64,000 bases of DNA from a virus (IMGVR_UViG_3300010413_000002:1-64000); one strand, 5' to 3'. Positions 11,694 to 38,617 are shown, counted from the first letter of the stretch. Notes: generated by a model from the letters alone, not told the origin. Program-made: numbers and translations.

Positions 11694-11735
11694 TTCATCT
11701 CCTTTTTTTAATAATTCTATATTATAAGTATTTAA

Positions 11736-11930: not shown

Positions 11931-11932
11931 TT

Positions 11933-12295: not shown

Positions 12296-12385
12296 TTAGT
12301 TTTTCAGTTAACGCTTTGATTTCAACATCTATTATAAAATCAACCTTTTCAAATATATTAACAGCCATTTTATTTTTTTATTATT

Positions 12386-13034: not shown

Positions 13035-13065
13035 AAGTCCTCCATTTTTATTAATAAAATAAATT

Positions 13066-13623: not shown

Positions 13624-13635
13624 TTTTTTTATTTG

Positions 13636-15290: not shown

Positions 15291-15312
15291 ATTTATTTTT
15301 TCCTTTTATTTA

Positions 15313-16899: not shown

Positions 16900-17540
16900 T
16901 TACGCTTAAAAGAAGAAACAGATTTGATAATATAACTTTTGATAACTTTGTTATAGACGAAAGTAATAAAGAAATTGTTGACTATTTAAAAGATTATTGC
17001 AATAACATTGAAAAGAAAATAGAACTCTGCGAAAATGTGATAATAAGCGGAACTGTAGGAACGGGAAAAACAATGTTAGCAAAGATTTTACAACAAAACT
17101 TACAAAAAAAAGAAATAACTGAAATAGTAGAAGAAGAGTCTTTTAATGGAACTGATTATGAAATTACTGAAAACAAACGAGTTAGAAAATTAAATATTAG
17201 ATATGTTTGTTGTAAAGACTTAATTGAAGAACTTCGTAAACATTTTTCTTCAGAGAATAAACAAAAAGTTCTTTGTTATCATGAAGCCGATATTTTAATT
17301 GTTGATGAAGTCGGAGTACAATACAATACAGACAATGAAAGAACAACTTTATATGATTTATTTGACTTCCGTTGGCAGAATTATAAACCTACAATTATTA
17401 TTTCAAACAATGAATTAATTCAGAAAGACAAAAATAGAGCGTTAGGTTTAAACAAAATATTAGGCTCAAGAATTTTAGATAGACTTAATAGTGGAACTAC
17501 AAGGTATTTTTATATCAATTCTAAATCAAAAAGAAGGTAA
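16896..17540 (+). CDS. DnaC/IstB-like AAA+ helicase loader.
   Basis: Walker A GTVGTGKTMLA and Walker B ILIVDEVG. Overlaps the initiator stop. Confidence 0.8.
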   Translation: MITLKRRNRFDNITFDNFVIDESNKEIVDYLKDYCNNIEKKIELCENVIISGTVGTGKTMLAKILQQNLQKKEITEIVEEESFNGTDYEITENKRVRKLNIRYVCCKDLIEELRKHFSSENKQKVLCYHEADILIVDEVGVQYNTDNERTTLYDLFDFRWQNYKPTIIISNNELIQKDKNRALGLNKILGSRILDRLNSGTTRYFYINSKSKRR

Positions 17541-18956
17541 ATGGAAGAAAAAGATAACGAAATTCACAACTTATACAACATAGAAGCAGAACAAACTGTT
17601 TTAGGGGTAATTATTTTAAATAATGAATACTTTGATTCTATAAATGAAATAATTAAAAAAGAATCGTTTTATGAGCCAATTCATTCGGTAATCTATGAAC
17701 ATATAGTTTATGTCTTAAAAGAAAAGAAAACAGTATTAGATTCCATAACTTTAAAGATATTTTTTAATACTAATGAGACATTAAAATCTATTGGCGGAGA
17801 TAAATACCTTTCGATTCTTTTAAGTATGGGAGCAGGAATTGTAGATATTAAAGATTATGCTAAGCTTATTAATGATTTATATAGAAAAAGACGGTTAATT
17901 TTACTTGGAGAAAAAATTGTTAATAGTATTTATAAAAATTCAAAAATCTCTGCTGATAAAATTATAGAAGATACAGAAAATTCTATTGAAAATATACAAA
18001 AAGAAACAGAAATAAAACTAAATATCAAAGAAGATATAAAAATAGCTAATGAAGAAATTTATGAAATAGGACTTGCATTAAAAGATCCAAATTATTTTAA
18101 TAAAGATTTAATAAAAACTGGTTTTAAAGATTTTGATAATAAATTCAATGGATTAAAAAAAGGAGAATTGGTTATATTAGCTGCTAGACCTTCTATGGGT
18201 AAATCAAGTTTGTCATTACAAATAGCATTAAATTTTATACAACAAGATAAAAATGTTATATTTTTTAGTTTGGAAATGTCAGAAAAAGAATTACAAACAA
18301 AAATATTTGCAAACATCAGTAGAATTAATTCAGAAAAAATAGAAAAAAGACAATTAAGCGAAGAAGAGTTTGAAACAATTTTTCTAAAAAGCGATGAATT
18401 TTTAAAGGATAAAAATTTTTTTATAGATGATACTTGTGCTGTTAATTGTAATTATATAGAAAAAATTTCAAGAAGAATTCAACGACTAAAAGGAGAGATT
18501 GATTTAATAATTGTTGACTATTTACAAATAATGGATTATCCAAAAGAAAATGAAGTTAAAGAATTAGGTTCTATCGTAGTTAGTTTAAAAAATATTTCTA
18601 AAAAGTTCAATTGTGCAATTTTATGTTTATCTCAATTAAATAGAAGTGTTGAATTGAGAGAAGATAAAAGACCATTTCTGAATGATTTAAGAGGTTCTGG
18701 CAATATTGAAGAAACAGCTAATATGGTTATTTTTTGTTATAGAAATTCTTATTATTTACAAAAAGAACTTAGTAAATTTGATATTTATGATATAAGTACC
18801 GAGTTTGAAAGAAAAGAAACTATGGCAAGATATGATTTAGTAAAAAATGATTTAGAACTTTTAGTAAGAAAAAATCGAAGAGGACAAACTGGTGATTGTA
18901 TGCTTTATTTTGATCCTAGATTTTCTTTAATAAGAGATAAAATTAGCTTGACTTAA
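17541..18956 (+). CDS. dnaB: Replicative DNA helicase, DnaB family.
   Basis: N-terminal EAEQTVLG signature, Walker A AARPSMGKSSLSL, IIVDYLQIM. Confidence 0.9.
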   Translation: MEEKDNEIHNLYNIEAEQTVLGVIILNNEYFDSINEIIKKESFYEPIHSVIYEHIVYVLKEKKTVLDSITLKIFFNTNETLKSIGGDKYLSILLSMGAGIVDIKDYAKLINDLYRKRRLILLGEKIVNSIYKNSKISADKIIEDTENSIENIQKETEIKLNIKEDIKIANEEIYEIGLALKDPNYFNKDLIKTGFKDFDNKFNGLKKGELVILAARPSMGKSSLSLQIALNFIQQDKNVIFFSLEMSEKELQTKIFANISRINSEKIEKRQLSEEEFETIFLKSDEFLKDKNFFIDDTCAVNCNYIEKISRRIQRLKGEIDLIIVDYLQIMDYPKENEVKELGSIVVSLKNISKKFNCAILCLSQLNRSVELREDKRPFLNDLRGSGNIEETANMVIFCYRNSYYLQKELSKFDIYDISTEFERKETMARYDLVKNDLELLVRKNRRGQTGDCMLYFDPRFSLIRDKISLT

Positions 18957-20825: not shown

Positions 20826-21122
20826 ATGTTTTTTTATAAAATTTGTTTTAGATTGAAATACGGATTTAATTATAATGATAGTTTTCTTTTAGATCACGCT
20901 TTTATTAATTGGGCAAATAAAGTAGTAAAGTACTATTTAATTAATAAGATTAAAATAAAAGATATAAAAGATGAAGACGTAAAAGATTATCAAGAGATGT
21001 TAGATTTAATTGATAACTTATATGAAAACTATACTCAATCTAATGAAACTATGGTAAAGAAGTATAAGAAGTTTTGCAAGCTTTTCACAAAGCATTCGAT
21101 AGGACTATGGGTAAACTTATAG
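20826..21122 (+). CDS. Hypothetical protein.
   Basis: 98-aa ORF. Confidence 0.4.
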   Translation: MFFYKICFRLKYGFNYNDSFLLDHAFINWANKVVKYYLINKIKIKDIKDEDVKDYQEMLDLIDNLYENYTQSNETMVKKYKKFCKLFTKHSIGLWVNL

Positions 21123-21793
21123 CATTTAATCCAAATGATATTGTTGGAAAGAAAATTAATAATTTAACTATACTAAAATATATAGGAAAACAACCTTCTA
21201 AAAAATATTATTTTGCTGATTGGGACGGACATAGACTTTATCATAAATACAAAGTAAAGTGTGATTGCGGAGAACTTAGTATCGTAAGAAGACAAACATT
21301 AATTAAAAAAAATGCTGTTAATAGTTGTATTCATTGTAAATGCAAGAATTATAATTCTAAAATGCCAAAAACTTATAAAGTTTGGTCTTCTTTAAAAGAG
21401 AAAACTAATTCTAAAAAAAATAACTATTGTACTATTAACGGTATCAAAGTTTGTAATAGATGGTTAAAATTTGAAAATTTTCTTGAAGATATGGGAGAAA
21501 AACCAGAATATAAAATTCTTTTAAGAATTGATAAAAAAAAGAACTTTTGTAAATCTAATTGCAAATGGGGAACTTATAAAGATTCTGTTAAAAGACAATC
21601 AAATACAAATTTAGTTTCAATTAATGGAATAACGAAAAGTTTAAAGGGATGGTTTAGATATTTCAAATTCACAGAAAATCAATATGACTATTATATAGAC
21701 AAAAGAACTAAAAAAAAATCTTTAAAAAAATTTTTAAAATTAAAAGATACGGATACTGTAATTGAGCATTATAAAATAAAAGCTAAAACTTAA
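21107..21793 (+). CDS. HNH-family endonuclease (phage free-standing / homing endonuclease type).
   Basis: KVWSSLKEKT...NGIKVCNRWLKFENFLEDMGEKPE...LRIDKKKNFCKSNCKWGT matches the actinophage HNH consensus (YxxWxxM...GGRGIxVCxxWxxFxxFxxDMGxxP...LDRID...NCRWAT). Internal start chosen at 21107. Confidence 0.5.
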   Translation: MGKLIAFNPNDIVGKKINNLTILKYIGKQPSKKYYFADWDGHRLYHKYKVKCDCGELSIVRRQTLIKKNAVNSCIHCKCKNYNSKMPKTYKVWSSLKEKTNSKKNNYCTINGIKVCNRWLKFENFLEDMGEKPEYKILLRIDKKKNFCKSNCKWGTYKDSVKRQSNTNLVSINGITKSLKGWFRYFKFTENQYDYYIDKRTKKKSLKKFLKLKDTDTVIEHYKIKAKT

Positions 21794-21795
21794 AA

Positions 21796-22296
21796 ATGGA
21801 TAATCTTTTAGATCAATTAATACAAAAATGGGCTTGTCGACACAGAAGTCAAGCTTCTGGAAAGAAAGCTCAATGCGGACATCATATTATTACAAGAGCT
21901 AATCTTCTAACCCGTTGGGATATTAGAAATATAATGCCATTAACATTTCGAGAGCATTACGATATTCATAGTAATGGATTAGATTATAGAACTCCAACTC
22001 AAAAAGAATATTGTTTAAAGTTTGCCAATTCCTCTTTAGTTGATTATTTAGTTAAAAACCAATTAACTGAACAAGAATTCAAAGAACAAAAATTAGAAGA
22101 ATTATGCAAAGAGCTAAACATTTCAAATCCAAAAGAATATGCTATTAAAGAAATAACAAAAAATACTAAAAAGAAACTTGCTCAGACAGAATATAAAAAG
22201 AAAGCTCAAAATAAAGCACAAGAGCTTTGGCGTAAAAGACAAAAAGAATTCTATCAAAAGAAGAAAGCCTATCTAAAAAAAATCAAAAAAAGTTGA
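21796..22296 (+). CDS. HNH endonuclease.
   Basis: QCGHHIITRANLLTRWDIRNIMPLTFREHYDIH carries the H-H-N...H HNH core. Confidence 0.65.
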   Translation: MDNLLDQLIQKWACRHRSQASGKKAQCGHHIITRANLLTRWDIRNIMPLTFREHYDIHSNGLDYRTPTQKEYCLKFANSSLVDYLVKNQLTEQEFKEQKLEELCKELNISNPKEYAIKEITKNTKKKLAQTEYKKKAQNKAQELWRKRQKEFYQKKKAYLKKIKKS

Positions 22297-22343: not shown

Positions 22344-22877
22344 TTGAATTGCAAGATGAAACTTAAAATAAGGGAATTTGTAAAAACAATAGGGGGAAAT
22401 GCAAATAAATTTGAAATCGATGGAAGTTTTATAAAATATAAAAGTTTACGTATATATATAACTACTCAACTAGAAATAGATACTCAAATTGACAAAAAGA
22501 TAAGTGGCTACCAAGAAGTACCTCGTTATAGATCTTTTTATCTTAACGAAGAAGAACACAAATTTTTAAGTGAAAAATTTAAGTTAAAAGTACAAGAAAT
22601 GGAAAAAATAAGAAAAGAAGAAGTAAAAAAGTCAGAACAAGAAATAATAGATTTATTTGAACAAAGGAGAAATATGAAAGTAGATTTTGAAAGAATGAAA
22701 AGTAATTTATCTTACTCATTAGATAAAACAAATGACATAACAGATAAAGCTTACGACGAAAATCTTAACGGATTTAATATTGATTTATTAAACGAAAAAG
22801 AAATTAAATCGTTAGCACAAGAGTATTTAGCTATTTATGAACTTTTATCAATGATAACGTGTTTGGAGGAGAAATGA
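22344..22877 (+). CDS. Hypothetical protein.
   Basis: 177-aa ORF. Confidence 0.45.
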   Translation: MNCKMKLKIREFVKTIGGNANKFEIDGSFIKYKSLRIYITTQLEIDTQIDKKISGYQEVPRYRSFYLNEEEHKFLSEKFKLKVQEMEKIRKEEVKKSEQEIIDLFEQRRNMKVDFERMKSNLSYSLDKTNDITDKAYDENLNGFNIDLLNEKEIKSLAQEYLAIYELLSMITCLEEK

Positions 22878-23362
22878 CAGTTATTACATATAAAAATGGA
22901 ATTTTGGCTTCTGATACGTTGGCAACAAATAATTCATATGATCATTCATTAAAACAACAAAAAATTTATATTGTTAAAAATGAAGTTTATGCTTTTACAG
23001 GAACAGTAAATAGAATGAATGAATATTTAGATTTTATAAAAGGAAAAATAAAAATTCTTACTTCTTGGGAGAAGAATGATATTGAAGGTATATGTATAAA
23101 TTTAAAAACTAAAAAAAAGTATCAGTTTCAAATTTGCGGAAATTATGTTTCTAAAATTGAATTTATAGATGATTTTGTTGCTTTTGGTTGGGGTAGACAA
23201 TATGCAAAAGGAGCTATGGAAATGGGAGCTGATGCTATAACAGCGATAGAAGTTGCTTGTAAATATACGATTTGTCAGTCTCCAATATATTATATTGATA
23301 TAAATGAAGAAAAACCAACAATTAAATTATACAAAAATGATAGATACAAGAGAAATTACTAG
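22874..23362 (+). CDS. HslV / proteasome-beta-like Ntn hydrolase (putative peptidase).
   Basis: RBS GGAGGAGAA then MTVITYKNGILASDTLAT (compare proteasome/HslV T-T-I-V-x-V-x-x-x-G-V-V-L-A-A-D-T-R-A-T). FGWGRQYAKGAMEMGADAITAIE resembles the GSGxxYAxxAxxA motif. Size about 163 aa. Confidence 0.5.
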   Translation: MTVITYKNGILASDTLATNNSYDHSLKQQKIYIVKNEVYAFTGTVNRMNEYLDFIKGKIKILTSWEKNDIEGICINLKTKKKYQFQICGNYVSKIEFIDDFVAFGWGRQYAKGAMEMGADAITAIEVACKYTICQSPIYYIDINEEKPTIKLYKNDRYKRNY

Positions 23363-23499: not shown

Positions 23500-24456
23500 A
23501 TGGAAAATAAAATAAAAGAACTAAAAAAGTTTTTAGATTTGGTAAATATAGTAAGACCAAAAAAAAATTTAGCAGTACCACAAGTAAATTTAGCCAAATA
23601 TCACAAAGGAAAATTAATTTATAATAATTTAGATTGTCAAATAGAATATAAATTAGAAGAAAAACTCTTTAAAAAAGATTGTTTAATAAATTTAAGTTAT
23701 TTATCTTTTTATTTAAAGAATTATCTTTTTTTAGATATTGATAATATTAAACAAGATGAAGCATTTTTCTTAAAATATAAAAGCTATTTTACATTTAAAA
23801 AATATAAAGAGAAAAATAGCTATGAAATAGAAGACTTACAAAGTATTATAAAATATACAATACCGTTTATTTCAAAAGATAAATCTAGGTATTATTTAAC
23901 TGGAATTTATTTCGATAAAAACAATTTAGTGGCTACAAATGGACACATCTTAATAAAATATCAATCTGATTGCAAATTTAATGATTCTTTTATTTTATCT
24001 ACTGAAATATGTAAAATTTTAACCAATCTAAAAGACGATATAAGTTTTTATTATAATAAAGATACTGTTTGTCAAAAAGTTATGTTTAAAAACGATAAAG
24101 TAAAAATTATTTCTAAGATAATAGATGGGGAATATCCAAATTATAATAATGTAATAAAACCTTGTTTGGAATATAAAAAGAAGTTATTTATTGAAGTTGA
24201 TGATTATAAGTTTATGAATTTAATGTCCATGATTAATTTTAATAAAAATAGTATAAAAATCAAAGGTAAAGAGTATATATTTAAAATTAATCATAAAATG
24301 AAAGGTTTGTTTAATGGAAAATATATAAAAAATATAATTGATATAGCTAAAAAATATAAGTATAAAGAAGTAAATTTTGCTTCTAACCAAGAATATCATC
24401 CTTTATTAGCAAAGGTAGATAATTGTACTTTATTGATAATGCCATTAAGAAACTAA
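23500..24456 (+). CDS. DNA polymerase sliding clamp (DnaN-like, short phage form).
   Basis: RYYLTGIYFDKNNLVATNGHILIKY matches the DnaN motif RYxLNGVLxE...LVATDGHRLA. Confidence 0.6.
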   Translation: MENKIKELKKFLDLVNIVRPKKNLAVPQVNLAKYHKGKLIYNNLDCQIEYKLEEKLFKKDCLINLSYLSFYLKNYLFLDIDNIKQDEAFFLKYKSYFTFKKYKEKNSYEIEDLQSIIKYTIPFISKDKSRYYLTGIYFDKNNLVATNGHILIKYQSDCKFNDSFILSTEICKILTNLKDDISFYYNKDTVCQKVMFKNDKVKIISKIIDGEYPNYNNVIKPCLEYKKKLFIEVDDYKFMNLMSMINFNKNSIKIKGKEYIFKINHKMKGLFNGKYIKNIIDIAKKYKYKEVNFASNQEYHPLLAKVDNCTLLIMPLRN

Positions 24457-24464
24457 AGGAGAAT

Positions 24465-24878
24465 ATGTTTAGTTTTAAAAAAAAGGAAGAAATTAAGGAA
24501 AGCAAAGCTGAAGAAGTTAAGCAAGAAGAAATTGCCTTAGATATTAGAGAAGAAATAAAAAAAATTGGAAATAATGTAGATAAGTTTATATTTAAGCGAA
24601 AACTTAATTCTTTTGGTCGTTCAGATTATGAATTTGAATATAAAAATTTATCTATTAGCTATTATCTTGATATTTTGTCAATATCAAAAATTTATTTAAT
24701 TAATAAAAATTGGAAAAAGGAAAAAAAATTATATCTATATCCATTACAGTTATCAAAAAAAGAAGAAGAATTTTTAGATGAGAAATTTTTAGAAAGAGCT
24801 AAACAAGAGAAAAAAAAAGAAGAAACAAGATTATTAGAAGAAGAAACTAAACTATTAAGAAAAGTTAAATTTGATTAA
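24465..24878 (+). CDS. Hypothetical charged coiled-coil protein.
   Basis: RBS AAGGAGAAT before the ATG at 24465. Confidence 0.45.
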   Translation: MFSFKKKEEIKESKAEEVKQEEIALDIREEIKKIGNNVDKFIFKRKLNSFGRSDYEFEYKNLSISYYLDILSISKIYLINKNWKKEKKLYLYPLQLSKKEEEFLDEKFLERAKQEKKKEETRLLEEETKLLRKVKFD

Positions 24879-26758
24879 TGATAATTTTTCGAAAATACCA
24901 ACAAAAATGTATAAATAAAGCAACAAGAGCTTTAATAGAGAGAGGAAATACAATAGGAGTAGCACCCACTGGAGCTGGAAAGACAATAATTATGTCTGGA
25001 ATAGTAAACAATCTCTTGATATTAAAAAAAGTTTCTAAAGTTTTATTTTTATGTCATAGACAAGAAATTAATCAGCAAAATTTTGAAAAGTTTATTAGAG
25101 TAACAGGTGTAACACCAACTCTTTTTATAAGTGCGTTTAAAAGCATCAAAAGAAAGATTGTTTTTGGAATGGTGCAAACGGTTTATAGGTCTTACGATAA
25201 ACTTCCAGCTTTTGATATGATAGTTGTAGACGAAGGACATCATTCTTGTGCAGAAAGTTATGATACAATAATTGAAGACCAAAAAAGAAAAAATCCTAAT
25301 TTAATAGTTCTTTTAATTACTGCAACGCCAAACAGGGGAGATAGACAAGGATTAATAAAGTATGTAGATAATGTTGCATTTCAAGTTTTTATTAAAGATT
25401 TAATAAAACAAGGCTTTTTGGTTAAACCAACGCCAATTTCAATTCCTCTTAATACCTTTGAAAATCGACATCATTTAGCAAAAGAAGAGAATTATGATTT
25501 TGTAAATCGAATTCTTTATAAGAAAATGCAAAAACATGAAGTTTTTAAGAGAAAGACTATAATATTCTGTAGAGATTTTAATCAAGTTGATAGCGTTAAA
25601 GACTATTTAGAAAAGATAGGAATAGAAACCGTTACAATTAGTTCAGAATTAAATGCTTATGATAGAAGCGAAAATCTTAGAAAGTTTGAAGAAAATGAAG
25701 TTGATATTATTTTAAATGTAGATGTATTAACGGAAGGTTATGATTATCCTCCTGCTGATTGTATAATCGTTTTACGAGCTGTAGGAAACAAGTCTTTGTA
25801 TATGCAAATGGTAGGAAGAGGTCTTAGAACTGTAGATCCAATAGAATATCCTAATGTATTTAAAAAAGATTGTCTATTATTAGATTTCGCTAGGAATCTT
25901 GAAGTTTATACTGATTTGGAACAAGAAGTTGATTTAATAGGACTCCAAAAAGAAGGTATGAATATAATGGATATTTTCAATGAGCCTCAAGAAAAAACTG
26001 AAATAACTTTAAAAGAAGTAGAAAAATCAATGCTTTTTAGCGAAGAAAGAAGAAATCTTTTTGAAAAATATAATGTCTTTTGGGAGTTTTTTGATAGTGA
26101 TATGGGATTTGTAAGTGGTTGTTGTGGTTATAAAAGTTCAATTTTTGTTGTAAATAATAATATATTTTACCAAGAAGACAAAAGAGAAAATAGCCGATTT
26201 CTTCTTATAAAAGATACGATTAATCTTGACAAATTAATTAATGATTGTATGATGGGAGAAGAAGAAAACAAAAAAAGAATAAATGAGCCAATAAATAAAG
26301 CTCAAATTAATATTCTTTTTGGAAAGTACAATATTGCAAGTTGCTCTAGCTATAGAGCGTCAGTGATGATAAATTTTGAGTTTAATAAGAAACAATTTGT
26401 TGAATTATTAAAAGGAATACAAATGAAATATAATTGGAGTAAAGAAAAAGCTACAAAATATTTAACTGATAATGAAATAACTTATAATGAATTAAAGAAT
26501 ATTTTAGATTCTGCTGAAGAAATATTTAAAAATTCAGATGAAAAAAGTTTCGTTAATAAAAATGCTCCTATAACATACTCTCTTAATTGTTTTAAAGGTT
26601 GGTTAAAAGAAAAATTAGAAGTTTGTAAGTTTTCTGATAAAATAAAAAAAACAAGTAACAATTATGGTAAAACCATAGCAAGTTCTGATTTTATAGTTTG
26701 TAGAAATATACTTTGGGAATTTGGAAAATTAATAAAAAAGGATAAAAATGATAATTAA
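24878..26758 (+). CDS. Superfamily-2 DExH-box helicase.
   Basis: Motif I VAPTGAGKT, motif II IVVDEGHHS, motif III ITATPNR, motif VI QMVGRGLR. Confidence 0.8.
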   Translation: MIIFRKYQQKCINKATRALIERGNTIGVAPTGAGKTIIMSGIVNNLLILKKVSKVLFLCHRQEINQQNFEKFIRVTGVTPTLFISAFKSIKRKIVFGMVQTVYRSYDKLPAFDMIVVDEGHHSCAESYDTIIEDQKRKNPNLIVLLITATPNRGDRQGLIKYVDNVAFQVFIKDLIKQGFLVKPTPISIPLNTFENRHHLAKEENYDFVNRILYKKMQKHEVFKRKTIIFCRDFNQVDSVKDYLEKIGIETVTISSELNAYDRSENLRKFEENEVDIILNVDVLTEGYDYPPADCIIVLRAVGNKSLYMQMVGRGLRTVDPIEYPNVFKKDCLLLDFARNLEVYTDLEQEVDLIGLQKEGMNIMDIFNEPQEKTEITLKEVEKSMLFSEERRNLFEKYNVFWEFFDSDMGFVSGCCGYKSSIFVVNNNIFYQEDKRENSRFLLIKDTINLDKLINDCMMGEEENKKRINEPINKAQINILFGKYNIASCSSYRASVMINFEFNKKQFVELLKGIQMKYNWSKEKATKYLTDNEITYNELKNILDSAEEIFKNSDEKSFVNKNAPITYSLNCFKGWLKEKLEVCKFSDKIKKTSNNYGKTIASSDFIVCRNILWEFGKLIKKDKNDN

Positions 26759-27218
26759 GACAAAAAAAGATTTTAAAGGAAAATGTATAGAATTACCAAA
26801 AAACTTAAGTGAGAAAATTTTTAATAAAATTAAAAATAAGTTTGATAAGCTTGCTTTACACTTTTCAAGTAATTATATATTTGGAGACCAAGAACACTGT
26901 CCATATATATGCTATTTATATGACGAAGCAAGTAATTATCTTAAAACTGATAATGTTCCTTATGGAGAAGAAATTTCAATAGAAGATTTTTTGAATGAAG
27001 AAGAAAATAGATGTTTGGTTGCTTATTCTTATTCAACTACTAGTATTAGTGGTTTCGGAAATATAGAAATGACACAAAATTCTAACGAACTTTATATAAA
27101 TAAAGAAACTATTGATCAATGGAGAGAAATTATTAAGGAAAAATTAAAAGAAAAGAATTTAGAAGTAGAAAAAGATAATATAATAATAATTAATCGAATG
27201 AAAATGGAAATAATTTGA
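26748..27218 (+). CDS. Hypothetical protein; paralog family member 2.
   Basis: MIIKTKKDFKGKCIELPKNLSEKIFNKIKNKFDKL...EISIEDFLNEEE. Overlaps the helicase stop. Confidence 0.55.
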   Translation: MIIKTKKDFKGKCIELPKNLSEKIFNKIKNKFDKLALHFSSNYIFGDQEHCPYICYLYDEASNYLKTDNVPYGEEISIEDFLNEEENRCLVAYSYSTTSISGFGNIEMTQNSNELYINKETIDQWREIIKEKLKEKNLEVEKDNIIIINRMKMEII

Positions 27219-27974: not shown

Positions 27975-28402
27975 AAGATTTTAAGTTGTGTTATATTGAA
28001 GGAAATTTTGCTTATTTTACTACGCAAGATTTAGATAAGCAAACTGGAGATGATTGGAACGATGCTCCTTATGATCTCAATGCTGGAGAACCATATACTC
28101 CAACTATTTATTATCCCTCTGGAAAAAAAGATCCTAGAGATTGGACAAATGGAAAACCAAATTGGGAAATTAAAAAATTAGTTTGGGAAGGAGATTTTGA
28201 CGAAGCGAAAAATATTTATATGGAAGATATAAATTGTATTTATTGTGTAGATGATATAAATAACAAAAAAGTTCCTTGGTTAGAATATCAAGGATATTCT
28301 AATGAAGATCTTGAGATTAAAATATGGGCAGGATGTTCAATTAAAGAGTTTAAAAAATTAATTAAAAAAGGCGGTGGAAAAATTTATGTGGAGGAAAAAT
28401 GA
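27971..28402 (+). CDS. Hypothetical protein.
   Basis: 143-aa ORF. Confidence 0.45.
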   Translation: MKDFKLCYIEGNFAYFTTQDLDKQTGDDWNDAPYDLNAGEPYTPTIYYPSGKKDPRDWTNGKPNWEIKKLVWEGDFDEAKNIYMEDINCIYCVDDINNKKVPWLEYQGYSNEDLEIKIWAGCSIKEFKKLIKKGGGKIYVEEK

Positions 28403-30966
28403 AAACTAAATTAAATATAGTATATGTCTTAGTAGGACCAACATCTTGTGGAAAAAGTTATTTTTGTAACGAAATGAAACAAAAGCTTACTAAACAAGGA
28501 TTAAGAACCGTTATCTTATCTTCTGATGAAGAAAGAAGAAATACATTTGGCGAAAATCTCCATAAATACAATAAACAAATGCTTCAGTCAAGCGAAAAAG
28601 CATTTAATATCTTATATTATAAATTGGAACAATTAATGAAATATCCTAATAGACCTCATTTTATATTTGTTGATACTACAGGTTTATCAGAAGATTTTAG
28701 AAACGATATTATCAATATAGTAAAAAAGACAAATTATAACCTTGGTCTTATTGTATTTACATATAAAGAAAAGTCTGAATACTATAAACACATCTCAGAA
28801 GAAGACTTAGAAAAAGGTAAACATATTATAGATAGACATATAACAAGATTAAAGAAAGACGTATTTAAAACACTTTCTAAGAAAAAATATAATTTTTGTC
28901 ATAATATAACTGAAAAAGATTTTTCAAATATAAAGTTTGAAATTGAAGATTTAGACTTATATAAATCAACCTTTTTAACAGATAAGGAAAATTATCTTGT
29001 TATAAGCGACATTCATGGACATTTTGATGAATTTAAGAAATTATTAGAATTGAACGAAATCAAAATAGAAAAAGACAGGATAGCTTCCTCCCCCTATAGC
29101 AAAATAATAATAAATGGGGATACAATAGATAAAGGTAAGCAAAGCAAAGAAGTCTTAAAGTTTCTTTTAAACAACAAAGAACATTTTAGGTTTGTCATAG
29201 GAAATCACGAAAATTTTATATATAAGTATCTAAAAGGAGAAATAGATATTAATAAGTTGAATAAGGAAATTTTAAAACAGTTTTCTTCAGCGGAGCAATA
29301 TAAAGACGATAAAGAGTTTTTTTTATTGTTGGAAGAATATATAAATTTATGCGTTCCTTTCTTACAGAACAGTTATTTTATAGTAAATCATGCTCCTTGC
29401 AAAAATAAGTATTTAGGATTGCTAAACTTTAAGTCTTTAAAGAAACAAAGAAACTACTTTATAAACGATAGAGAAAAAGCTTTAGAAGAATTAAGGTTTG
29501 TACAAGAACAAAGTCGAGGTAACTACCCACTTCATATATTCGGGCATATTGCAGTTAAGAAAGTTTCAAAAATAAAGAATGAGATTTTTACAGATACTGG
29601 TGCTGGAAATAATCAAAAATTAACTGCTTTAGAATTATCTTACAAAGAATTTAAGGACTCATATTATACAAAAAACATATCGGTCGATTGCGAAGGAGAA
29701 CCCAAACAAGAAGGTTTAGAAATAGAAAAAAAGAAAGAAGTAGATTTTGACCTATTAGAACCAAAAGAAAGAGGAAGAATTTATTGGGCAATAGATAACA
29801 AAGTTCAATTCATATCAGGTACAATGCCTCCTTCTGCTTCAAGTGATGAATATGGATTAGAAAGTTTAGAAACTGCTATATCCTACTTCGAAAGTAAAGA
29901 CTACAAATTAGAAGATTTAGTATTCCAACCAAAGTATATGGGATCAAGATGTACGCTTTATCTAAATAGAGACATTGAAAAGTGTATGATGACTTCAAGA
30001 AAGGGCTATAGGATTAGGCGTTTATATGATAAAAACGGAGAAGAGATTACTGATTTTGTTGAAATATATAACAAATTTTTAGCAAAACCAAAACTAAAGA
30101 AACTATTAGAAGACGAAACAATAGAAACTATTGTTTTAGATGGCGAACTAATGCCTTGGTATGCTCTAGGAAGAAATCTAATAGAAAACACCTATGAAAA
30201 AGTTGCTGATTGCATAGAAAATGAACTAGAACTTTTAAAGGAAACTAATTTTGAAGAAGCTTTAAGTAAAGTTGATAAAGCATACAAAGATTTTAATTTT
30301 GAAGAACGACATAAAAACGAAAAAGCTAAAGATTTAGAAGCTGAAATAGGATACACTATCTATAAAACTTTTTTAAATTATAAGAATAGCAATTTTGCTC
30401 CTTTAAAAGATGTTGAAAGTAATTTAAAAGAATTTAAAAATCAAATAAGCCTATATGGCTCTAAAGAGGAAATAGATTATAAACCTTTTGATATGCTTAA
30501 AATTATTTACAAAGACGGAACTGAAAAAGTTAAAAATCCAAAAAAGGATAGTTCGCATGATGTTTTTTGGAAAGTAAATAGTAATGGATGCCAAAAATTC
30601 TCCAAAATAGAAGAATTAAAAGAATGGTATGAAATTATAACTAAAGATTTAAAATTAGAGGGCTGTGTGATTAAACCAGAGTTCTTAAAAGATGATTGTA
30701 TACCTTATATGAAAGTTCGTAATCCTAGGTACTTAAAATTAATCTACGGATATGATTATGATGATAAGGATAACTTAGAATATCTAATTAGAAACAAAAG
30801 AACAAAAAAGAAATGTCAAGTTGCAATAGAACAATTTAAATTGGGGCTAAAGTTGTTAAATTTCAAGGTAGACGAAATTACTAAAGAAAACGAGGACTAT
30901 AAACAAACTGTTGCCAAAATAATCTTTGAGGAAAAGAAAGAGACTGAAATTGACCCAAGATTGTAA
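28399..30966 (+). CDS. Trifunctional Pnkp-like RNA-repair enzyme: 5'-OH polynucleotide kinase, metallophosphoesterase (2',3'-phosphatase) and C-terminal ligase-like domain.
   Basis: P-loop VYVLVGPTSCGKSYF at the N-terminus. Central calcineurin-type motifs ISDIHGH, INGDTIDKG, IGNHE. C-terminal region with KYMGSR (candidate KxxG adenylyltransferase motif I). 855 aa, the same domain order and size as bacterial Pnkp. Confidence 0.7.
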   Translation: MKTKLNIVYVLVGPTSCGKSYFCNEMKQKLTKQGLRTVILSSDEERRNTFGENLHKYNKQMLQSSEKAFNILYYKLEQLMKYPNRPHFIFVDTTGLSEDFRNDIINIVKKTNYNLGLIVFTYKEKSEYYKHISEEDLEKGKHIIDRHITRLKKDVFKTLSKKKYNFCHNITEKDFSNIKFEIEDLDLYKSTFLTDKENYLVISDIHGHFDEFKKLLELNEIKIEKDRIASSPYSKIIINGDTIDKGKQSKEVLKFLLNNKEHFRFVIGNHENFIYKYLKGEIDINKLNKEILKQFSSAEQYKDDKEFFLLLEEYINLCVPFLQNSYFIVNHAPCKNKYLGLLNFKSLKKQRNYFINDREKALEELRFVQEQSRGNYPLHIFGHIAVKKVSKIKNEIFTDTGAGNNQKLTALELSYKEFKDSYYTKNISVDCEGEPKQEGLEIEKKKEVDFDLLEPKERGRIYWAIDNKVQFISGTMPPSASSDEYGLESLETAISYFESKDYKLEDLVFQPKYMGSRCTLYLNRDIEKCMMTSRKGYRIRRLYDKNGEEITDFVEIYNKFLAKPKLKKLLEDETIETIVLDGELMPWYALGRNLIENTYEKVADCIENELELLKETNFEEALSKVDKAYKDFNFEERHKNEKAKDLEAEIGYTIYKTFLNYKNSNFAPLKDVESNLKEFKNQISLYGSKEEIDYKPFDMLKIIYKDGTEKVKNPKKDSSHDVFWKVNSNGCQKFSKIEELKEWYEIITKDLKLEGCVIKPEFLKDDCIPYMKVRNPRYLKLIYGYDYDDKDNLEYLIRNKRTKKKCQVAIEQFKLGLKLLNFKVDEITKENEDYKQTVAKIIFEEKKETEIDPRL

Positions 30967-31211: not shown

Positions 31212-31799
31212 ATGATAATTAAAACAAAAAAGGATTTTGATCCGTTTTTTTTAGAAATAACTCCAAAATTAACTGCAAAAAAATACGTAGAAGTTTGTAA
31301 TAAATTTAAAGCAATGGACTTTTGGTATGAACCAAGAAATGGTTTAAAAGAATTAGAAGGAAAAATAGGTCAATGTTATTTATATATAAACGCTACTGGA
31401 CATATATTTTCTGATTATAAATTAGATAAGGAAGGATTAAAACCATTAGAAATAATTTCAGTTGAAGACTTTTTAAGAGAGGAAGATTATCCTACAATTA
31501 TTCCTTCTGAAGAAAAATATGGAGGGATTTTCTATAAGGACAAAAGATATGATGAAACACCAAAAGGCATACAGCAACTAGTAGATGATTTTTCTAAAAA
31601 TAATCAAGGTGTTGTATTTCCAAAAGAAGATGAAAGGACATATGGTACAAAAAATAAAAAAAGTTTATTGCCAAATCCAAAAAATATAGAAGAAGAAGTA
31701 TACGGTACTCCAAGGTATAATGATGTTCTTATTGAAGAAAATAGAGTTTTAATTAAACAAATATGCGAATATTTAAGAGAAAAGGAGAATGATGATTAG
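31212..31799 (+). CDS. Hypothetical protein; paralog family member 3.
   Basis: MIIKTKKDFDPFF...CNKFKA...IISVEDFLREED. Confidence 0.55.
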   Translation: MIIKTKKDFDPFFLEITPKLTAKKYVEVCNKFKAMDFWYEPRNGLKELEGKIGQCYLYINATGHIFSDYKLDKEGLKPLEIISVEDFLREEDYPTIIPSEEKYGGIFYKDKRYDETPKGIQQLVDDFSKNNQGVVFPKEDERTYGTKNKKSLLPNPKNIEEEVYGTPRYNDVLIEENRVLIKQICEYLREKENDD

Positions 31800-32213: not shown

Positions 32214-33542
32214 ATGTATAAAACCTTACAACCAACAAAAATAAAACAAAAAAGTGAGAAATGGCTTGAACTTAAAAGAACAAAAATAGGTTCATCTGAA
32301 ATATATGGACTTGTAAAAAACTATATTAAGCCTCAAGAATTAGAAAGTTTAGGCATAAATAGTGCAGAATTTACAGAAAAGCCGTATACTACAGCTTGGG
32401 AACTTTATCATAAATTTACTAATCCTAATTATGTAGGAAGGTCTTTAAGTTGGGAACTTGCTGAATATGGAAATTCAATGGAAAAGTTTGCTTTTAAATG
32501 GTTAAAAAAAGGTAATTTCAAATATCAGAACTCTATTTTCACACAAGGGAATGTTTATGCTAATGATAACGACATAAGAATAGCTAGCTTAGATATAGAA
32601 GGCGAAACCGATTCTAAAGAAATAATTAAAGACGCTAATGGAAACTATATTGCTCTAGGAGAAGATAAAAACTTTATAATAGAAGTAAAAGCAATGTCAA
32701 AGTTTAAAGCTTCTAAAAATCAAATTTTAACTGAAGGAGTAGATTGGAAATACATATTGCAATTACAATGGCAACTTTGGTGTAGAAATATAAATTGGGG
32801 TGCTATATTGGTTTTTGAATTATTAAATGATACTCAAGCCAACAGAGGTTATGTTATAAGATGTGGAGAAACACTAAACAAAAAAGATTATGAATATATA
32901 GATAATGCAACTCAAAAGAGAATTTTTTTCTATAAGAGACTACCTCAATATGAAAAAATATTTGAATTAGCTTTAGAAAGATTTATGAATGATGTTAAGT
33001 TTAAGAACGAACCTAAATTTGTCTCAACAGAAAATAAAGCTTTTTGGATTCAACAACTTATGAGAAGAGATGATTTTATGAACTCTAAAAGATTTGATTT
33101 TAAGAAAAATACATTATCTTTTAATGCAGAAGACAAATCAATCAATATATTAGACGGAACATTTGAAGGATTAGAATTATTCAAAAAAGATAAAATAATA
33201 GTCTTTGGAAGCAAAAACAACAATAAAAGATTCAATATTAAATCTATTTCAGACAATAAGATTATAGTTAAAGAGAAGATAGAAGATGAATTTAATGTTA
33301 AAAATATTGAATTATGTAAGAAGCTAAGCATTTTTCTTAATGAAAACTTTACTAAGTTTTTTAAGCAGTATAAAAAGAAAAAGAAAGAAACTGAAAAATA
33401 TGAATACTTAAAGAACGAATTGGAACAGCGTTTATATTCAGAAGGGAAACTAGTAGTAAATAGTAGATATGGCAAGATTTCTTACGGAGCAACTGGCAGG
33501 ATAACTGTAAAATTAGAAGAAGAGGAGAAGAAAAATGTTTAA
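32214..33542 (+). CDS. YqaJ-like viral recombinase-domain exonuclease (lambda Exo / PD-(D/E)xK family) with C-terminal extension.
   Basis: WLELKRTKIGSSEIYGLV (compare YqaJ R-x-G-x-I-T-A-S), SLDIEGE...IIEVKAM (D...E-x-K) and YILQLQWQLW (the conserved Q-x-Q motif). Confidence 0.65.
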   Translation: MYKTLQPTKIKQKSEKWLELKRTKIGSSEIYGLVKNYIKPQELESLGINSAEFTEKPYTTAWELYHKFTNPNYVGRSLSWELAEYGNSMEKFAFKWLKKGNFKYQNSIFTQGNVYANDNDIRIASLDIEGETDSKEIIKDANGNYIALGEDKNFIIEVKAMSKFKASKNQILTEGVDWKYILQLQWQLWCRNINWGAILVFELLNDTQANRGYVIRCGETLNKKDYEYIDNATQKRIFFYKRLPQYEKIFELALERFMNDVKFKNEPKFVSTENKAFWIQQLMRRDDFMNSKRFDFKKNTLSFNAEDKSINILDGTFEGLELFKKDKIIVFGSKNNNKRFNIKSISDNKIIVKEKIEDEFNVKNIELCKKLSIFLNENFTKFFKQYKKKKKETEKYEYLKNELEQRLYSEGKLVVNSRYGKISYGATGRITVKLEEEEKKNV

Positions 33543-34113: not shown

Positions 34114-34346
34114 AGTTTTTTAAAAGACTATTTTGTGAACATGATTATAGAATAGTTCAAATGTATAAAGGAAAATGGGTTGTCGATAGAGAATATTGTT
34201 TTTATAATTTGCTTTATTGTAGAAAATGTGGAAAAACTAAGATAAAATATTGGGGATTTTATCCTAAACATCATGGCTTATATACTCATATACAACAAAT
34301 GGCAAATGCTTTTGAAAATTTTGTTAAAAAGGAGGAAAAATGTTAA
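34107..34346 (+). CDS. Small zinc-ribbon protein.
   Basis: CEHD...CRKCG. Confidence 0.4.
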   Translation: MLKFFKRLFCEHDYRIVQMYKGKWVVDREYCFYNLLYCRKCGKTKIKYWGFYPKHHGLYTHIQQMANAFENFVKKEEKC

Positions 34347-35734
34347 AAGAACTACAAGATATAGTTTCAAAACCAAAAGAGCTTGAAAAGCTATTAAAAA
34401 GATTTGATATAAAAATTAGCAATCGAAATTCGTTAGCTAAAATTCGAGATGGTTTCTCTAAAATAGATAGCTACATAAGAAATAAAGCAGATTTAGAAAC
34501 AGCAGTTTTGTCTTTGTGTGGATCTTTCCAAAAACTAGAAGGATTAGGAATAGATTTAAACGAATCGGATTCTTTCTTTGTTTCTGGATACAAGAATGAA
34601 TTAAAAGCTGATTATGAATATACAGCATTACTGAGAGCTGCTGCTAAAAATGGCTTTTTAGCTTTGACTGATATTATTTTTGTCAAAAAAGAAGAAAAAT
34701 TTGCTACTTTTAGAGATACAACTACTAAAGACAGTCTTGTTAAAATAGATTATAGAGACGAAGGATTACCAAAGTACGTTACTTTAGATACGATAGAAGA
34801 TTATAAATTTTTCTTTTGTTTGCTTACTTTGAAAGATAATGAAAAACCTTATGAAATTGTGCATCAAAAAGAGTTAAAATTATTTCCAGAAGAAGTGTTT
34901 ACTATTAAAAGCAAGACAAAAACTCAAGATACTTATGATATTAAAAGATATAATCCAAAAACTCAAAGAAAAGAAGTTGTAGATCAAGGAAAATCAGTTT
35001 GGAATGAATTTACTCGTCAAATGATAGAAAAAACACTTATAAAACAATGTTTTAGATTGTTAAAAGACGTTTTACCTTGGGTTAAGAAGTTCTATGAATT
35101 TGAAGAAGAATCTAACGAGTATGAAGTAGGAGAATCAAACAAAACTGAAGGTTTAAAAGACAAAGTTCCAAATCTAGTTGTAAAAAACGCAGATTTAAAC
35201 AATCCTACCGAAGAACAAATAAGAGAGGCACAGCAAATTCAAGAAGAATACAAAAATAGTCCTATAATGAAAGAAACATACACAACCGAAATTAAGAACG
35301 GTTTAGACATATGTAAAACGTTAAAAGACTATCAATCCTTCATAGATACCTTCATAATCAAAATTTTATCCCTAGACGAAGATAAGGAGCTTTTAAAAAC
35401 TATAAAAGCAAAAGAAGATGAATTATCTCTTCAAAAAATAGAAAATCATCAAAAACAAAAAGAAGAAGAGCAAAAAAAAGAACTTCCTAAGAACATCAAT
35501 ATAGCAAAAGGAGTTCCAAAAGATTTTAATAAAGATAATTTAGATAAAAACAGAACTGAAATATTTGATAAGCTTAAAGCTGATTTAGAAAGTTGTGAAA
35601 CTATTGATGAATTAAGACAATGTTTTGAAAATCATAAATTCCAAGAAGATTTTGCTAAATTAGACAAAGACAGAAAAGATTTAATCGTAAATTCAAAAAA
35701 TTACTTAAAAGAACAATTGATGGAGAAAAAATGA
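34340..35734 (+). CDS. RecT-family single-strand annealing protein.
   Basis: AVLSLCGSFQKLEGLGIDLN...FFVSGYKN and ALLRAAAKNGF resemble the RecT core. It lies downstream of the YqaJ-like exonuclease, as in RecET / Red modules. Confidence 0.55.
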   Translation: MLKELQDIVSKPKELEKLLKRFDIKISNRNSLAKIRDGFSKIDSYIRNKADLETAVLSLCGSFQKLEGLGIDLNESDSFFVSGYKNELKADYEYTALLRAAAKNGFLALTDIIFVKKEEKFATFRDTTTKDSLVKIDYRDEGLPKYVTLDTIEDYKFFFCLLTLKDNEKPYEIVHQKELKLFPEEVFTIKSKTKTQDTYDIKRYNPKTQRKEVVDQGKSVWNEFTRQMIEKTLIKQCFRLLKDVLPWVKKFYEFEEESNEYEVGESNKTEGLKDKVPNLVVKNADLNNPTEEQIREAQQIQEEYKNSPIMKETYTTEIKNGLDICKTLKDYQSFIDTFIIKILSLDEDKELLKTIKAKEDELSLQKIENHQKQKEEEQKKELPKNINIAKGVPKDFNKDNLDKNRTEIFDKLKADLESCETIDELRQCFENHKFQEDFAKLDKDRKDLIVNSKNYLKEQLMEKK

Positions 35735-37092: not shown

Positions 37093-37355
37093 ATTTCTAA
37101 AAAACTTCCCTTTTAAATTTTAATATATATAATATATCTTATGGCAATTTAAACGTTGTATATAATAGATGATATGGACACGGGAGCATTACCCGTCTCT
37201 TCCACCAATTGATTATAAGGGGGAGAAATAGATTTGACATACATTCAAAGATACAATCTTTGCTCAGAGTGATTTCTGTGAAAGTCAAAAAAATAACTGG
37301 AGAAGAAATTCTTTTAGCCGCCTAAAAATTCAAAATTTTAAGACGGAACGGTTTG

Positions 37356-37388
37356 GGAGAGCCGTTTTACCAAACTCTCCTTTGTTTT
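37356..37388. terminator. Bidirectional rho-independent terminator between convergent blocks.
   Basis: GGAGAG-ccgttttaccaaa-CTCTCC stem-loop followed by TTTGTTTT. It sits at the stop of the minus-strand tdk and downstream of the plus block. Confidence 0.5.
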
Positions 37389-38208
37389 AAATCTCATTAA
37401 ACCAATTGTATTTTTCTTTTTTGCTTTTCTTTTTAATTTCTTCTTTAGCAAAAGTTTTTGATCTTCTTCTGTTTTTCTTTATTTCTTTTAAAACGTCTTC
37501 AATCTTTTTTTTATCATGATAATTTGAAAATAATTGCTTTTTCTTACTTTTCTTTTTTTTGAAATTTTTCCATTTAATTTTATTATAATCTATATCTTCA
37601 TTACAATAATCATGATGTTTTTCACAAACTGCTTTATATTTATCTCCATCGCCAACAACAACCAAATTTTTGTTTTTAATGATTCTGCCAGTGCAAGTTC
37701 CTTTTTCGCAACAGCCTTCAACACTGCATTCAGCAGTTAGATAAGTAATATTTTTACTTTTAATCAATCCATCTCCTATTAATTTCTTTGTTATTGGGAA
37801 ATATTCATTCTTGAAGTCTCTATCTAAACCAGCTAAAAATATTTCTATTCCTTGATTACTAAAAACTTTAATCATTTTAATAAATCCTTCAACTTCTTTT
37901 TTATTATTAATTCCAAAAAATTGGAGTTCATCTATAGCAATGGCTTTTATGCCTTTGTTTTCTTTAATGATTTTTTCTATATCTTTATAATTTTTAACAG
38001 AATAAGCTTCTGTTTCTTTTCCTGTCCTTGATAATACTTTGTTTTTGCCATATCTGTCATCATCAAAGGTGTGCTTAAAACATATAGCCTTTTTTTTATT
38101 TTTTTTACAAAGCTCAATGTATTCTACAACTGCATTTGATTTGCCAGCATACATTGATCCTGTATATAATTTTACTCTTTTTATAGAGGTTTTTGTCTTT
38201 TTTTCCAT
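37387..38208 (-). CDS. tdk: Thymidine kinase with C-terminal Zn ribbon and Lys-rich tail.
   Basis: LYTGSMYAGKSNAVVEYIE (P-loop), IDELQFF, C..C / CEKHH zinc ribbon. Confidence 0.85.
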   Translation of the reverse strand: MEKKTKTSIKRVKLYTGSMYAGKSNAVVEYIELCKKNKKKAICFKHTFDDDRYGKNKVLSRTGKETEAYSVKNYKDIEKIIKENKGIKAIAIDELQFFGINNKKEVEGFIKMIKVFSNQGIEIFLAGLDRDFKNEYFPITKKLIGDGLIKSKNITYLTAECSVEGCCEKGTCTGRIIKNKNLVVVGDGDKYKAVCEKHHDYCNEDIDYNKIKWKNFKKKKSKKKQLFSNYHDKKKIEDVLKEIKKNRRRSKTFAKEEIKKKSKKEKYNWFNEI

Positions 38209-38302: not shown

Positions 38303-38617
38303 ATGTTTAACGAACTTAATTTAGAAGAATTTAAAGAAATAATAAAATCTGATAAACCTATACTAATAGATTTTTATGGAAAACATTGTCCTCAATGTAA
38401 AATAATTGCTCCAATCTTAGAAGAATTATCAAGTAAAATGAAAGATAAACTAGGTTTTTACAAGTTTGATATTAATCAAGATTTAGAAGTAGCGAAAGAA
38501 TATAATATTCAAAGCCTTCCAACTATAATTATTTTTAAGGAAGGTAAAACTTTAAACGTTAGAACTGGAAGCGGTTCTAAAAAGATTATTCAAGATTGGA
38601 TTAATGAAAAAATTTAG
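38303..38617 (+). CDS. Thioredoxin-fold protein (CPQC active site).
   Basis: FYGKHCPQCKIIAP. 104 aa. Confidence 0.7.
   Translation: MFNELNLEEFKEIIKSDKPILIDFYGKHCPQCKIIAPILEELSSKMKDKLGFYKFDINQDLEVAKEYNIQSLPTIIIFKEGKTLNVRTGSGSKKIIQDWINEKI

Follow-up and report, generated by a model that had tools for sequence, protein, structure and literature searches.

The 64,000-nucleotide stretch IMGVR_UViG_3300010413_000002:1-64000 (hereafter the window; 64 kb of a 122,666-bp contig, the remaining ~58 kb of which lay outside our view) encodes a single 855-amino-acid (aa) polypeptide that, judged from its sequence and a structure model, is probably a Pnkp-type enzyme with which a phage heals and seals RNA ends. 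Its open reading frame (ORF; 28399..30966, + strand) has exactly the position and size given in the first-pass annotation of this DNA, is preceded by a GGAGG ribosome-binding site and begins with an ATG that overlaps the TGA of a 143-aa ORF upstream; promoter and terminator scans around the gene gave no enrichment over shuffled sequences. The protein almost certainly heals RNA ends with its predicted kinase and phosphatase, and appears built to seal them with a third, ligase domain. By analogy with known systems its role would most likely be the repair of cleaved translation RNAs, and we only infer that it may counter host anticodon nucleases.

The domain order kinase-phosphatase-ligase, which the first-pass annotation had read from short motifs, is borne out by Pfam, NCBIfam and PDB sequence matches, which exceed chance by a wide margin, and by structure prediction. 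All of those motifs are there: GPTSCGKS at residues 13-20, DIHGH at 204-208, GDTIDKG at 240-246, GNHE at 268-271 and KYMGS at 512-516. Pfam recognises AAA_33 at aa 9-124 (2e-7), Metallophos at aa 200-386 (3e-13) and, from aa 464, PF16542 PNKP_ligase, for the Pnkp-type (Rnl4-like) RNA ligases (2e-26; 93.4 bits vs a gathering cutoff of 28.2). In the PDB sequence search, residues 459-855, the C-terminal 397, align with the full Rnl chain of the Pnkp1-Rnl-Hen1 system of Capnocytophaga gingivalis (CgiRnl; 4xru_B/4xrp, E 1.5e-39, 28% identity), and the similarity extends over the whole of Rnl, including its insertion domain and a C-terminal D-x-R-L, which reads DPRL here. The ligase domain of C. thermocellum Pnkp (CthPnkp) is a far weaker match to the C-terminal part (E 8.5e-12), while the middle domain and the N-terminus match the phosphatase and kinase structures of that enzyme (Table 1). 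The protein has no HAD match of the kind that the DxDxT 3'-phosphatase of T4-type Pnkp would give, and its phosphatase is of the calcineurin type.

Residue conservation was judged on two family alignments, of 15 and 47 members. In the kinase, S41, S42, D43 (the general base) and R46 are invariant in both, and the P-loop residues G13, G18 and K19, the last directly followed by S20, are invariant in the smaller alignment and at least 90% conserved in the larger. The residues essential for the kinase of CthPnkp, K21, S22, D38 and R41 (PMC3902929), correspond to K19, S20, D43 and R46, so all four are kept. Nine residues are essential for the CthPnkp phosphatase (D187, H189, D233, R237, N263, H264, H323, H376 and D392; PMC3675462), and alignment with 4j6o places D204, H206, D241, K245, N269, H270, H331, H383 and D399 at these positions; eight of the nine are identical, the sole change being a conservative one, Arg237 to Lys245, at which Lys is invariant in the clade. 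The ligase residues that are invariant in both alignments comprise K512 of KYMGS (motif I), D581 and E583-L584 of DGEL (motif III, 581-584), E754, G755, V757, K759 and P760 of EGCVIKP (motif IV, 754-760, EGxVxKP) and K772-V773-R774 of KVRN (motif V, 772-775), and G582 and N775 do not vary among the 15 sequences and are conserved to at least 90% among the 47.

An AlphaFold2 model built from the 47-sequence alignment is confident (mean predicted local distance difference test score 89.8) and has three folded domains. The top Foldseek match in the PDB is CgiRnl of the Pnkp1/Rnl/Hen1 complex, with a target-normalised template-modelling (TM) score of 0.86, a root-mean-square deviation of 3.0-3.2 Å and 28% identity; Pnkp-C/Hen1-N and CthPnkp ligase structures come next (TM ~0.6), and the CthPnkp phosphatase domain (TM 0.69) and lambda phosphatase are also found. 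The first-pass annotation had allowed that the C-terminal third might not be a ligase and that the motifs might not be conserved; the former is a ligase by sequence and by fold, and the catalytic residues are kept. We conclude that the protein carries three intact modules, predicted to be a P-loop 5'-kinase, a binuclear metallophosphoesterase and an ATP-dependent RNA ligase. The second is of the type that in CthPnkp takes off 2',3'-cyclic, 3'- and 2'-phosphates.

A search of 5.8 billion proteins returned 220 matches at E<=1e-10. Among the matches listed, essentially all relatives are full length (~860 aa) and 34-39% identical to the window protein, Paenibacillus, Brevibacillus, Cohnella and metagenomes are their main sources, and the name they bear is mostly just 'metallophosphoesterase'; the only close relative listed (P0002, 69% identical) is encoded on an 11-kb phage-like ENA contig (L004). 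The NCBIfam model for the classical enzyme, bacter_Pnkp (TIGR04075), matches the window protein at 3.5e-53 but with 181 bits against a curated equivalog cutoff of 750. None of eight relatives tested, Hen1-linked Paenibacillus and viral proteins among them, reaches that cutoff either (144-254 bits), and therefore, on sequence, the phage protein and its relatives form a sister clade of classical Pnkp outside the equivalog. The description 'Pnkp-like' in the first-pass annotation thus stands for the architecture, the domain order and the catalytic residues, and fails if it is taken to mean a classical Pnkp. The sequence and model comparisons place the clade as one that couples a classical-type healing half to a ligase nearer to the stand-alone Rnl of the Pnkp1-Rnl-Hen1 system. 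It is common in Paenibacillaceae and predicted phages, and our literature search found no paper on it, nor any that links Pnkp/Hen1 to Paenibacillus-type proteins. Hundreds of chromosomal relatives in Paenibacillaceae (~861 aa), which are Hen1-linked where checked, carry only the label 'metallophosphoesterase' in RefSeq.

The ligase of both characterised systems depends on Hen1: an insertion module blocks the ligase pocket until the N domain of Hen1 (Hen1-N) locks it open, tRNA repair required all components, and the ligase failed to repair tRNA without Hen1 (Wang, Selvadurai & Huang 2015, PMC4411300). Relatives of the phage protein are operon-linked to this RNA 2'-O-methyltransferase in the same manner as classical Pnkp. 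In Paenibacillus dendritiformis, a Hen1 gene (Hen1_N plus methyltransferase) overlaps the start of the Pnkp homolog and is translationally coupled to it. The family alignment, used as a pattern against IMG/VR, brought up full-length relatives at 27 viral loci (contigs of 24-530 kb), and the Hen1 profile found a full-length Hen1 in 25 of them. Read from the coordinates, 19 of these 25 Hen1 genes end <150 nucleotides upstream of Pnkp on the same strand, and in some loci (L024, L018 and L020) Hen1 lies ~6 kb off or on the opposite strand. The two loci without Hen1 are L016, where the contig stops 186 nucleotides upstream, and L022 (IMGVR_UViG_3300036770_007945, 9935..12676), where a 914-aa Pnkp relative sits beside a ribonucleotide reductase gene on a 140-kb viral contig and the Hen1 profiles detect nothing within +-10 kb. 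A 411-aa ORF next to the L022 Pnkp was considered as a divergent Hen1 and rejected, having no Pfam support; L022 is apparently a second, independent lineage that is locally Hen1-less.

Hen1 also lies upstream of Pnkp in the three outgroups closest to the window protein (P0003, P0039 and P0100), all of them on phage-like contigs, and the P0039 contig additionally has Ro60/TROVE, a PolyA_pol-family enzyme, RlaP, a second metallophosphoesterase and PhoH. Sequenced phages carry such systems in other arrangements. Xanthomonas phage XacN1, whose PNKP plus Hen1 had already been noted (PMC5852040), has kinase, Hen1 and Rnl genes in a row (ORF197-199). In Vibrio phage RYC (AP014858.1, 5079..8296; VCPH_00184/185), a stand-alone Rnl annotated 'hypothetical protein' lies directly upstream of a 717-aa 'polynucleotide kinase' that we read from its sequence as an entire Hen1, with both its ligase-activating domain and its methyltransferase, continued at the C-terminus by a T4-type kinase and HAD phosphatase; by that reading, this locus is a two-gene form of the Pnkp1-Rnl-Hen1 system in an isolated phage. 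From the 25 of 27 IMG/VR loci, the three outgroups, XacN1 and RYC, it follows that phage-borne Pnkp/Rnl-Hen1 systems are common.

The window departs from this pattern. We searched all 831 six-frame ORFs of at least 30 aa in the 64 kb with three Hen1 proteins, a three-sequence profile and 28-sequence profiles of full-length Hen1, the N-domain and the methyltransferase domain, and found nothing significant; the best hit, of 13 bits, was a 77-aa ORF in an AT-rich stretch, on the strand that does not code there. No methyltransferase turned up when the 94 predicted genes of at least 72 aa in the window were scanned against PHROG. The statement of the first-pass annotation that there is no Hen1 therefore holds for the visible 64 kb only. 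The same profiles find no Hen1 on the 11-kb sister contig L004. In a neighbour-joining tree, crude and drawn without support values, the window protein and P0002 are a sister pair nested among Hen1-linked phage sequences, with L022 elsewhere; this placement of the Hen1-less pair and L022 suggests that Hen1 was secondarily lost or moved, probably more than once.

No candidate for a replacement activator emerged, as the small ORFs coupled upstream of Pnkp differ between the window and L004. The 143-aa ORF that occupies the site of Hen1 in relatives was rejected as a stand-in for Hen1-N, for it matches nothing in Pfam or the PDB and none of the Hen1 profiles, and it has no homolog on L004 or in 35 fetched loci. 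Three paralogs in the window, 442..1221 (- strand), 26748..27218 (+) and 31212..31799 (+), have in common a ~90-aa N-terminal domain that begins MI[IL][KT]TKKDF; the first is translationally coupled to a gene for an Rnl2-family RNA ligase and the other two flank Pnkp. As a conserved ligase accessory this family was likewise rejected, with no Pfam or PHROG match and no homologs in the 35 fetched loci.

The ligase itself shows no sign of decay or of re-engineering. Of 51 ligase columns with at least 90% conservation among 29 Hen1-linked sequences, 48 are unchanged in the window protein (the exceptions are F599Y, S809A and E812Q), and the Hen1-linked sequences themselves deviate at 0-6. The spacer between motifs III and IV, which holds the insertion module (~aa 596-740), is 169 aa here vs 171-175 in the nearest Hen1-linked relatives, and the ratio of insertion to core identity is 0.79 between the window protein and P0002 and 0.64-0.97 in Hen1-linked pairs of comparable divergence. 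The idea that the ligase or its module decayed once Hen1 was lost was rejected, since conserved columns, module length and divergence are all normal. By sequence, the ligase domain and its predicted Hen1-binding insertion module are intact and still conserved; an inhibitory role of the module is assigned by analogy.

Two accounts of the sealing step meet at this point. The protein may belong to an ordinary Pnkp-Hen1 system, in which the partner comes from the host or from the ~58 kb out of view and the product is a Hen1-activated, methylating complex like that of its relatives. Because the insertion module is normal, because Capnocytophaga hen1 sits far from its pnkp1-rnl operon (PMC4411300) and because only about half of the contig is visible, a distal Hen1 has to be taken seriously, and we give this account a chance somewhat short of even. 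Full-length retention of the auto-inhibitory module at a normal relative rate of change, the retained ligase columns and the viral loci with a distant or inverted Hen1 all speak for it, but there is no Hen1 in the 28 kb upstream or the 33 kb downstream of Pnkp, none on the sister contig, and no same-contig Hen1 among 120 listed Hen1 clusters and 20 compositionally matched representatives, which are part of 1,934 and 519 matches.

The other account is that the enzyme is independent of Hen1, its ligase being autonomous or served by a new, unrecognised activator, so that a single polypeptide would carry out T4-style repair with no 2'-O-methylation. The window and L004 sequences are 69% identical and lie in unrelated neighbourhoods, yet both lack Hen1 and keep all ligase motifs; the unrelated locus L022 likewise has no detectable Hen1 nearby, and a lytic phage would presumably profit little from lasting 'immunity' of the repaired RNA. 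We nevertheless regard Hen1 independence as rather doubtful: a ligase of this type is auto-inhibited without Hen1 (PMC4411300), the inhibitory module has been neither deleted nor relaxed, and the coupled small ORFs, which are not conserved between the window and L004, offer no candidate for a substitute. That an activator is still needed, from elsewhere on the phage or from the host, is slightly more likely than an autonomous ligase, because the ligase keeps the conserved module that Hen1 normally unlocks. These and the further readings weighed below overlap and are not a strict partition.

Several observations weigh against an enzyme that both heals and seals RNA. The precedent that such ligases fail on tRNA without Hen1 (PMC4411300), taken with the absence of a visible Hen1 here, makes self-sealing no more than a prediction. 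The Pnkp gene is not beside RNA genes but in a DNA replication and recombination block, with the SNF2 helicase upstream and YqaJ and RecT downstream, and the Rnl2-family ligase and the CCA-adding enzyme of the window are encoded 20-27 kb away on the other strand. In a further reading the protein acts through its healing half only, Rnl2 seals, and the Pnkp ligase domain is kept for scaffolding, RNA binding or adenylyl transfer alone. A bona fide Rnl2 with its C-terminal domain is indeed present in the same window, and in jumbo phages genes for kinases and phosphatases are generally accompanied by separate ATP-dependent ligases (PMC7824862). K512, DGEL, EGxVxKP and KVRN, which a purely structural part would not need, are all retained, however, and Rnl2 is 26 kb off on the opposite strand; we consider this reading unlikely.

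A last reading is a role in DNA end processing, in which the enzyme would prepare DNA ends that bear 5'-OH or 3'-phosphate for the recombination and replication proteins encoded next to it. The gene lies between a SNF2/ResIII helicase and the YqaJ-RecT-like pair, within the DnaB/DnaC/clamp block. The polynucleotide kinases of T4 and C. thermocellum also accept DNA 5'-OH ends. In the crystal structures of CthPnk, DNA oligonucleotides were used (PMC3902929). Against this, the ligase is of an RNA-ligase family, the solved structure nearest to it is from a system that repairs tRNA (PMC4411300), the relatives are nearly always linked to the RNA 2'-O-methyltransferase Hen1, and early-gene blocks of large phages commonly mix such functions. 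A DNA substrate thus seems highly improbable to us, and an enzyme that heals RNA ends, and probably seals them, remains the preferred reading.

Table 1. Features of the 64-kb window, with strand and supporting evidence
Feature	Position	Strand	Basis
Truncated ORF with metallophosphoesterase-like motifs DVH, GD, GNH	1..473	-	Metallophos_2 E 7e-4, 20 bits vs cutoff 27
Rnl2-family RNA ligase, 326 aa	1218..2198	-	RNA_ligase 3.6e-17 (63.5 bits), T4_Rnl2_C 1e-10 (42.2 bits), phrog_548 2.5e-50
SSB	2882..3301		
CCA-adding enzyme with HD domain, 440 aa	6668..7990	-	PolyA_pol 7e-29, tRNA_NucTran2_2, HD, PolyA_pol_RNAbd, phrog_2244 2.4e-70
phrog_2087 membrane protein (499 phage records, mostly large myoviruses)	7987..9117		
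HslV-like peptidase (phrog_1040)	9645..10187	-	
PHROG 'virion structural protein'	10205..10744		
RecBCD-inhibitor-like protein	10772..11155		
Replication initiator	16096..16899		
DnaC-like loader	16896..17540		
DnaB	17541..18956		
HNH endonucleases	21074..22296		
HslV-like peptidase, second copy (phrog_1040)	22859..23362	+	
Sliding clamp	23500..24456		
SNF2 helicase (SNF2/ResIII)	24878..26758		
ORF coupled to Pnkp, at site of Hen1 in relatives, 143 aa	27971..28402	+	No family match
Pnkp-like gene, predicted kinase + phosphatase + ligase	28399..30966	+	ORF, domain matches, AlphaFold2 model
Polynucleotide 5'-kinase domain, aa 1-175	28399..28923	+	Pfam AAA_33; PDB 4gp6 CthPnk E 1e-3
Binuclear metallophosphoesterase (2',3'-phosphatase) domain, aa 176-440	28924..29718	+	Pfam Metallophos; 4j6o alignment; Foldseek
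ATP-dependent RNA ligase (adenylyltransferase) domain, aa 459-855	29773..30963	+	PNKP_ligase; 4xru_B; Foldseek
YqaJ/RecE-like exonuclease	32214..33542		
RecT-like protein	34340..35734		
Permuted two-piece tmRNA	37102..37383	+	Rfam RF01849 98.9 bits (gathering 50), RF04321 101.4 bits (gathering 47)
Thymidine kinase	37387..38208		
Thioredoxin	38303..38617		
Glycosyltransferase	43615..44907		
tRNA-shaped element, anticodon loop ~5 nucleotides	49964..50032	+	Rfam tRNA 33 bits (gathering 29); ARAGORN negative
Two tandem permuted tRNA-like (YrlA-type) modules, each with T-arm, acceptor-like hairpin, D-arm	62008..62200	+	

The surroundings of the gene, a 'mobile element' in the first-pass annotation, are phage-like by their PHROG gene content (Table 1). 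The window has a GC content of 25% and contains no terminase, portal or capsid gene, no integrase and no conjugation gene; megablast against sequenced phages gave no near-identical DNA, and no close phage relatives appeared in IMG/VR scans (Pnkp, helicase and DnaB) or in metagenome and GTDB scans. It is most likely the early/middle region of a large phage without a close sequenced relative.

Other genes that would fit RNA repair are scattered through this region. The Rnl2-family ligase named in the first-pass annotation is supported by Pfam RNA_ligase and T4_Rnl2_C, both above cutoff, by the PHROG 'RNA ligase' family and by a motif I, KVHG, in the translation, and the CCA-adding enzyme by PolyA_pol, tRNA_NucTran2_2 and HD. 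For the second metallophosphoesterase claimed at the start of the window, the motifs are there, but the ORF is truncated and its Metallophos_2 match is weak and under the cutoff. A phage-like contig (L033; ENA ERZ23500128 scaffold_109, 136..16391) has a dense RNA-repair island of Ro60/TROVE, SNase, a PolyA_pol-family enzyme, Hen1, the three-domain Pnkp, RlaP and a second metallophosphoesterase, with PhoH close by.

The tRNA-like cluster of the first-pass annotation was borne out in part. ARAGORN reports no tRNA and no tmRNA in the 64-kb window, so there are no canonical tRNA genes, but Rfam finds a tmRNA, a tRNA-shaped element and YrlA-like mimics. The tmRNA matches the Rfam models alpha_tmRNA (98.9 bits) and tmRNA_permuted (101.4 bits), and the alpha type of the former may hint at the host lineage. 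The tag frame of the tmRNA, read from the alignment, ends GCC GCC UAA (Ala-Ala-stop). In the tRNA-shaped element the acceptor, D and T arms are all intact. The genes around it are on the other strand, and it may serve as a decoy or a processing signal, or be a tRNA that has degenerated. In the YrlA-like tandem, the downstream module (62135..62200) scores 33.1 bits with the Rfam YrlA model, under the gathering threshold of 69 (local E 1.7e-5), and the upstream one (~62008..62075) was read by eye, its T-arm and 7-bp hairpin being recovered in the computed fold. The tandem is flanked by repeated GTTCCTAT at 61987, 62110 and 62235. An 'intron-containing tRNA' at 62044..62167 (124 nucleotides with a 59-nucleotide insert) is an artefact in which the Rfam model bridges the two modules. 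YrlA RNAs have been reported in 22 phages, normally <=4 kb from Ro60 (PMC4201824); no Ro60/TROVE is detectable within the 64-kb window, and a large ORF just 3' of the YrlA-like RNAs (62290 to beyond 64000) was rejected as Ro60/TROVE for want of a Pfam or PDB match.

Taken by analogy with characterised systems, these parts suggest how repair might proceed. The kinase would phosphorylate the 5' end and the phosphatase would convert the 3' end to 3'-OH/2'-OH; the break could then be sealed by the protein's own ligase domain via Lys512-AMP, or by the separate Rnl2. The CCA-adding enzyme would rebuild damaged 3' termini, and the phage tmRNA would rescue ribosomes stalled on broken RNAs. The gene would descend from phage and bacterial Pnkp-Hen1 pairs, Hen1 having left the neighbourhood in the window lineage, and without a nearby Hen1 methyltransferase repair may be T4-style, with no 2'-O-methyl 'immunity'.

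Among known systems, classical CthPnkp has the same three-domain order and a length of ~860 aa; the phage protein differs from it by its low equivalog score, its distant ligase and the Arg-to-Lys change in the phosphatase, and in being phage-encoded rather than on a bacterial chromosome, with no Hen1 in view. The Capnocytophaga system has the closest ligase, and its hen1, too, is not linked to the ligase gene. Its ligase is a protein of its own, however, and a T4-like Pnkp1 (kinase plus HAD phosphatase) does the healing; the phage protein joins its ligase in one chain to a kinase of the classical type and a calcineurin-type phosphatase. The phage-borne sets of XacN1, RYC and the 25 IMG/VR contigs resemble the window in coming from large phages with the same ligase family and other translation-repair genes, and several IMG/VR and metagenomic contigs encode the full three-domain protein at 31-39% identity; their Hen1 is close by or fused, in contrast to the window phage and its sister contig. 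T4 Pnkp and Rnl1 (and Rnl2) are also phage-encoded and counter the host anticodon nuclease PrrC, and the window shares with T4 an Rnl2-family ligase with T4_Rnl2_C. T4 Pnkp, however, has a HAD phosphatase and no ligase domain, the T4 ligases are of other families (Rnl1 and Rnl2), and the window has no T4-type Pnkp.

The combination of Pnkp, Rnl2, CCA-adding enzyme, tmRNA and tRNA mimics would fit, by analogy, the repair and rescue toolkits known from large phages. A review of such phage repertoires covers ligases, kinases, phosphoesterases, CCA enzymes, RlaP, and Ro60 with tRNA-like RNAs, and the toolkits are seen as a response to host nucleases that attack tRNAs and other RNAs of translation (PMC7824862). 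With those repertoires, XacN1 PNKP plus Hen1 (PMC5852040) and 25 viral contigs with Pnkp-Hen1, the suggestion that a toolkit of this kind goes beyond the T4 paradigm is not new. What goes beyond the literature is an uncharacterised clade and, within it, a lineage without nearby Hen1 that has a fully conserved, apparently Hen1-gated ligase.

Hosts halt infection by cleaving tRNAs and other RNAs of translation, and phages answer with RNA repair, of which the T4 Pnkp/Rnl1 pathway is the only one that has been studied in depth. The rule that Hen1 unlocks the ligase has so far been set in two bacterial systems only, and this locus is a testable candidate exception to it. If the ligase proves not to be autonomous, the locus would be another phage copy of a known repair system. 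If it is autonomous, it would be the first Hen1-independent member of its ligase family and a compact one-protein tool for RNA healing and sealing, and phages would have stripped the 2'-O-methylation 'immunity' step from a bacterial repair system.

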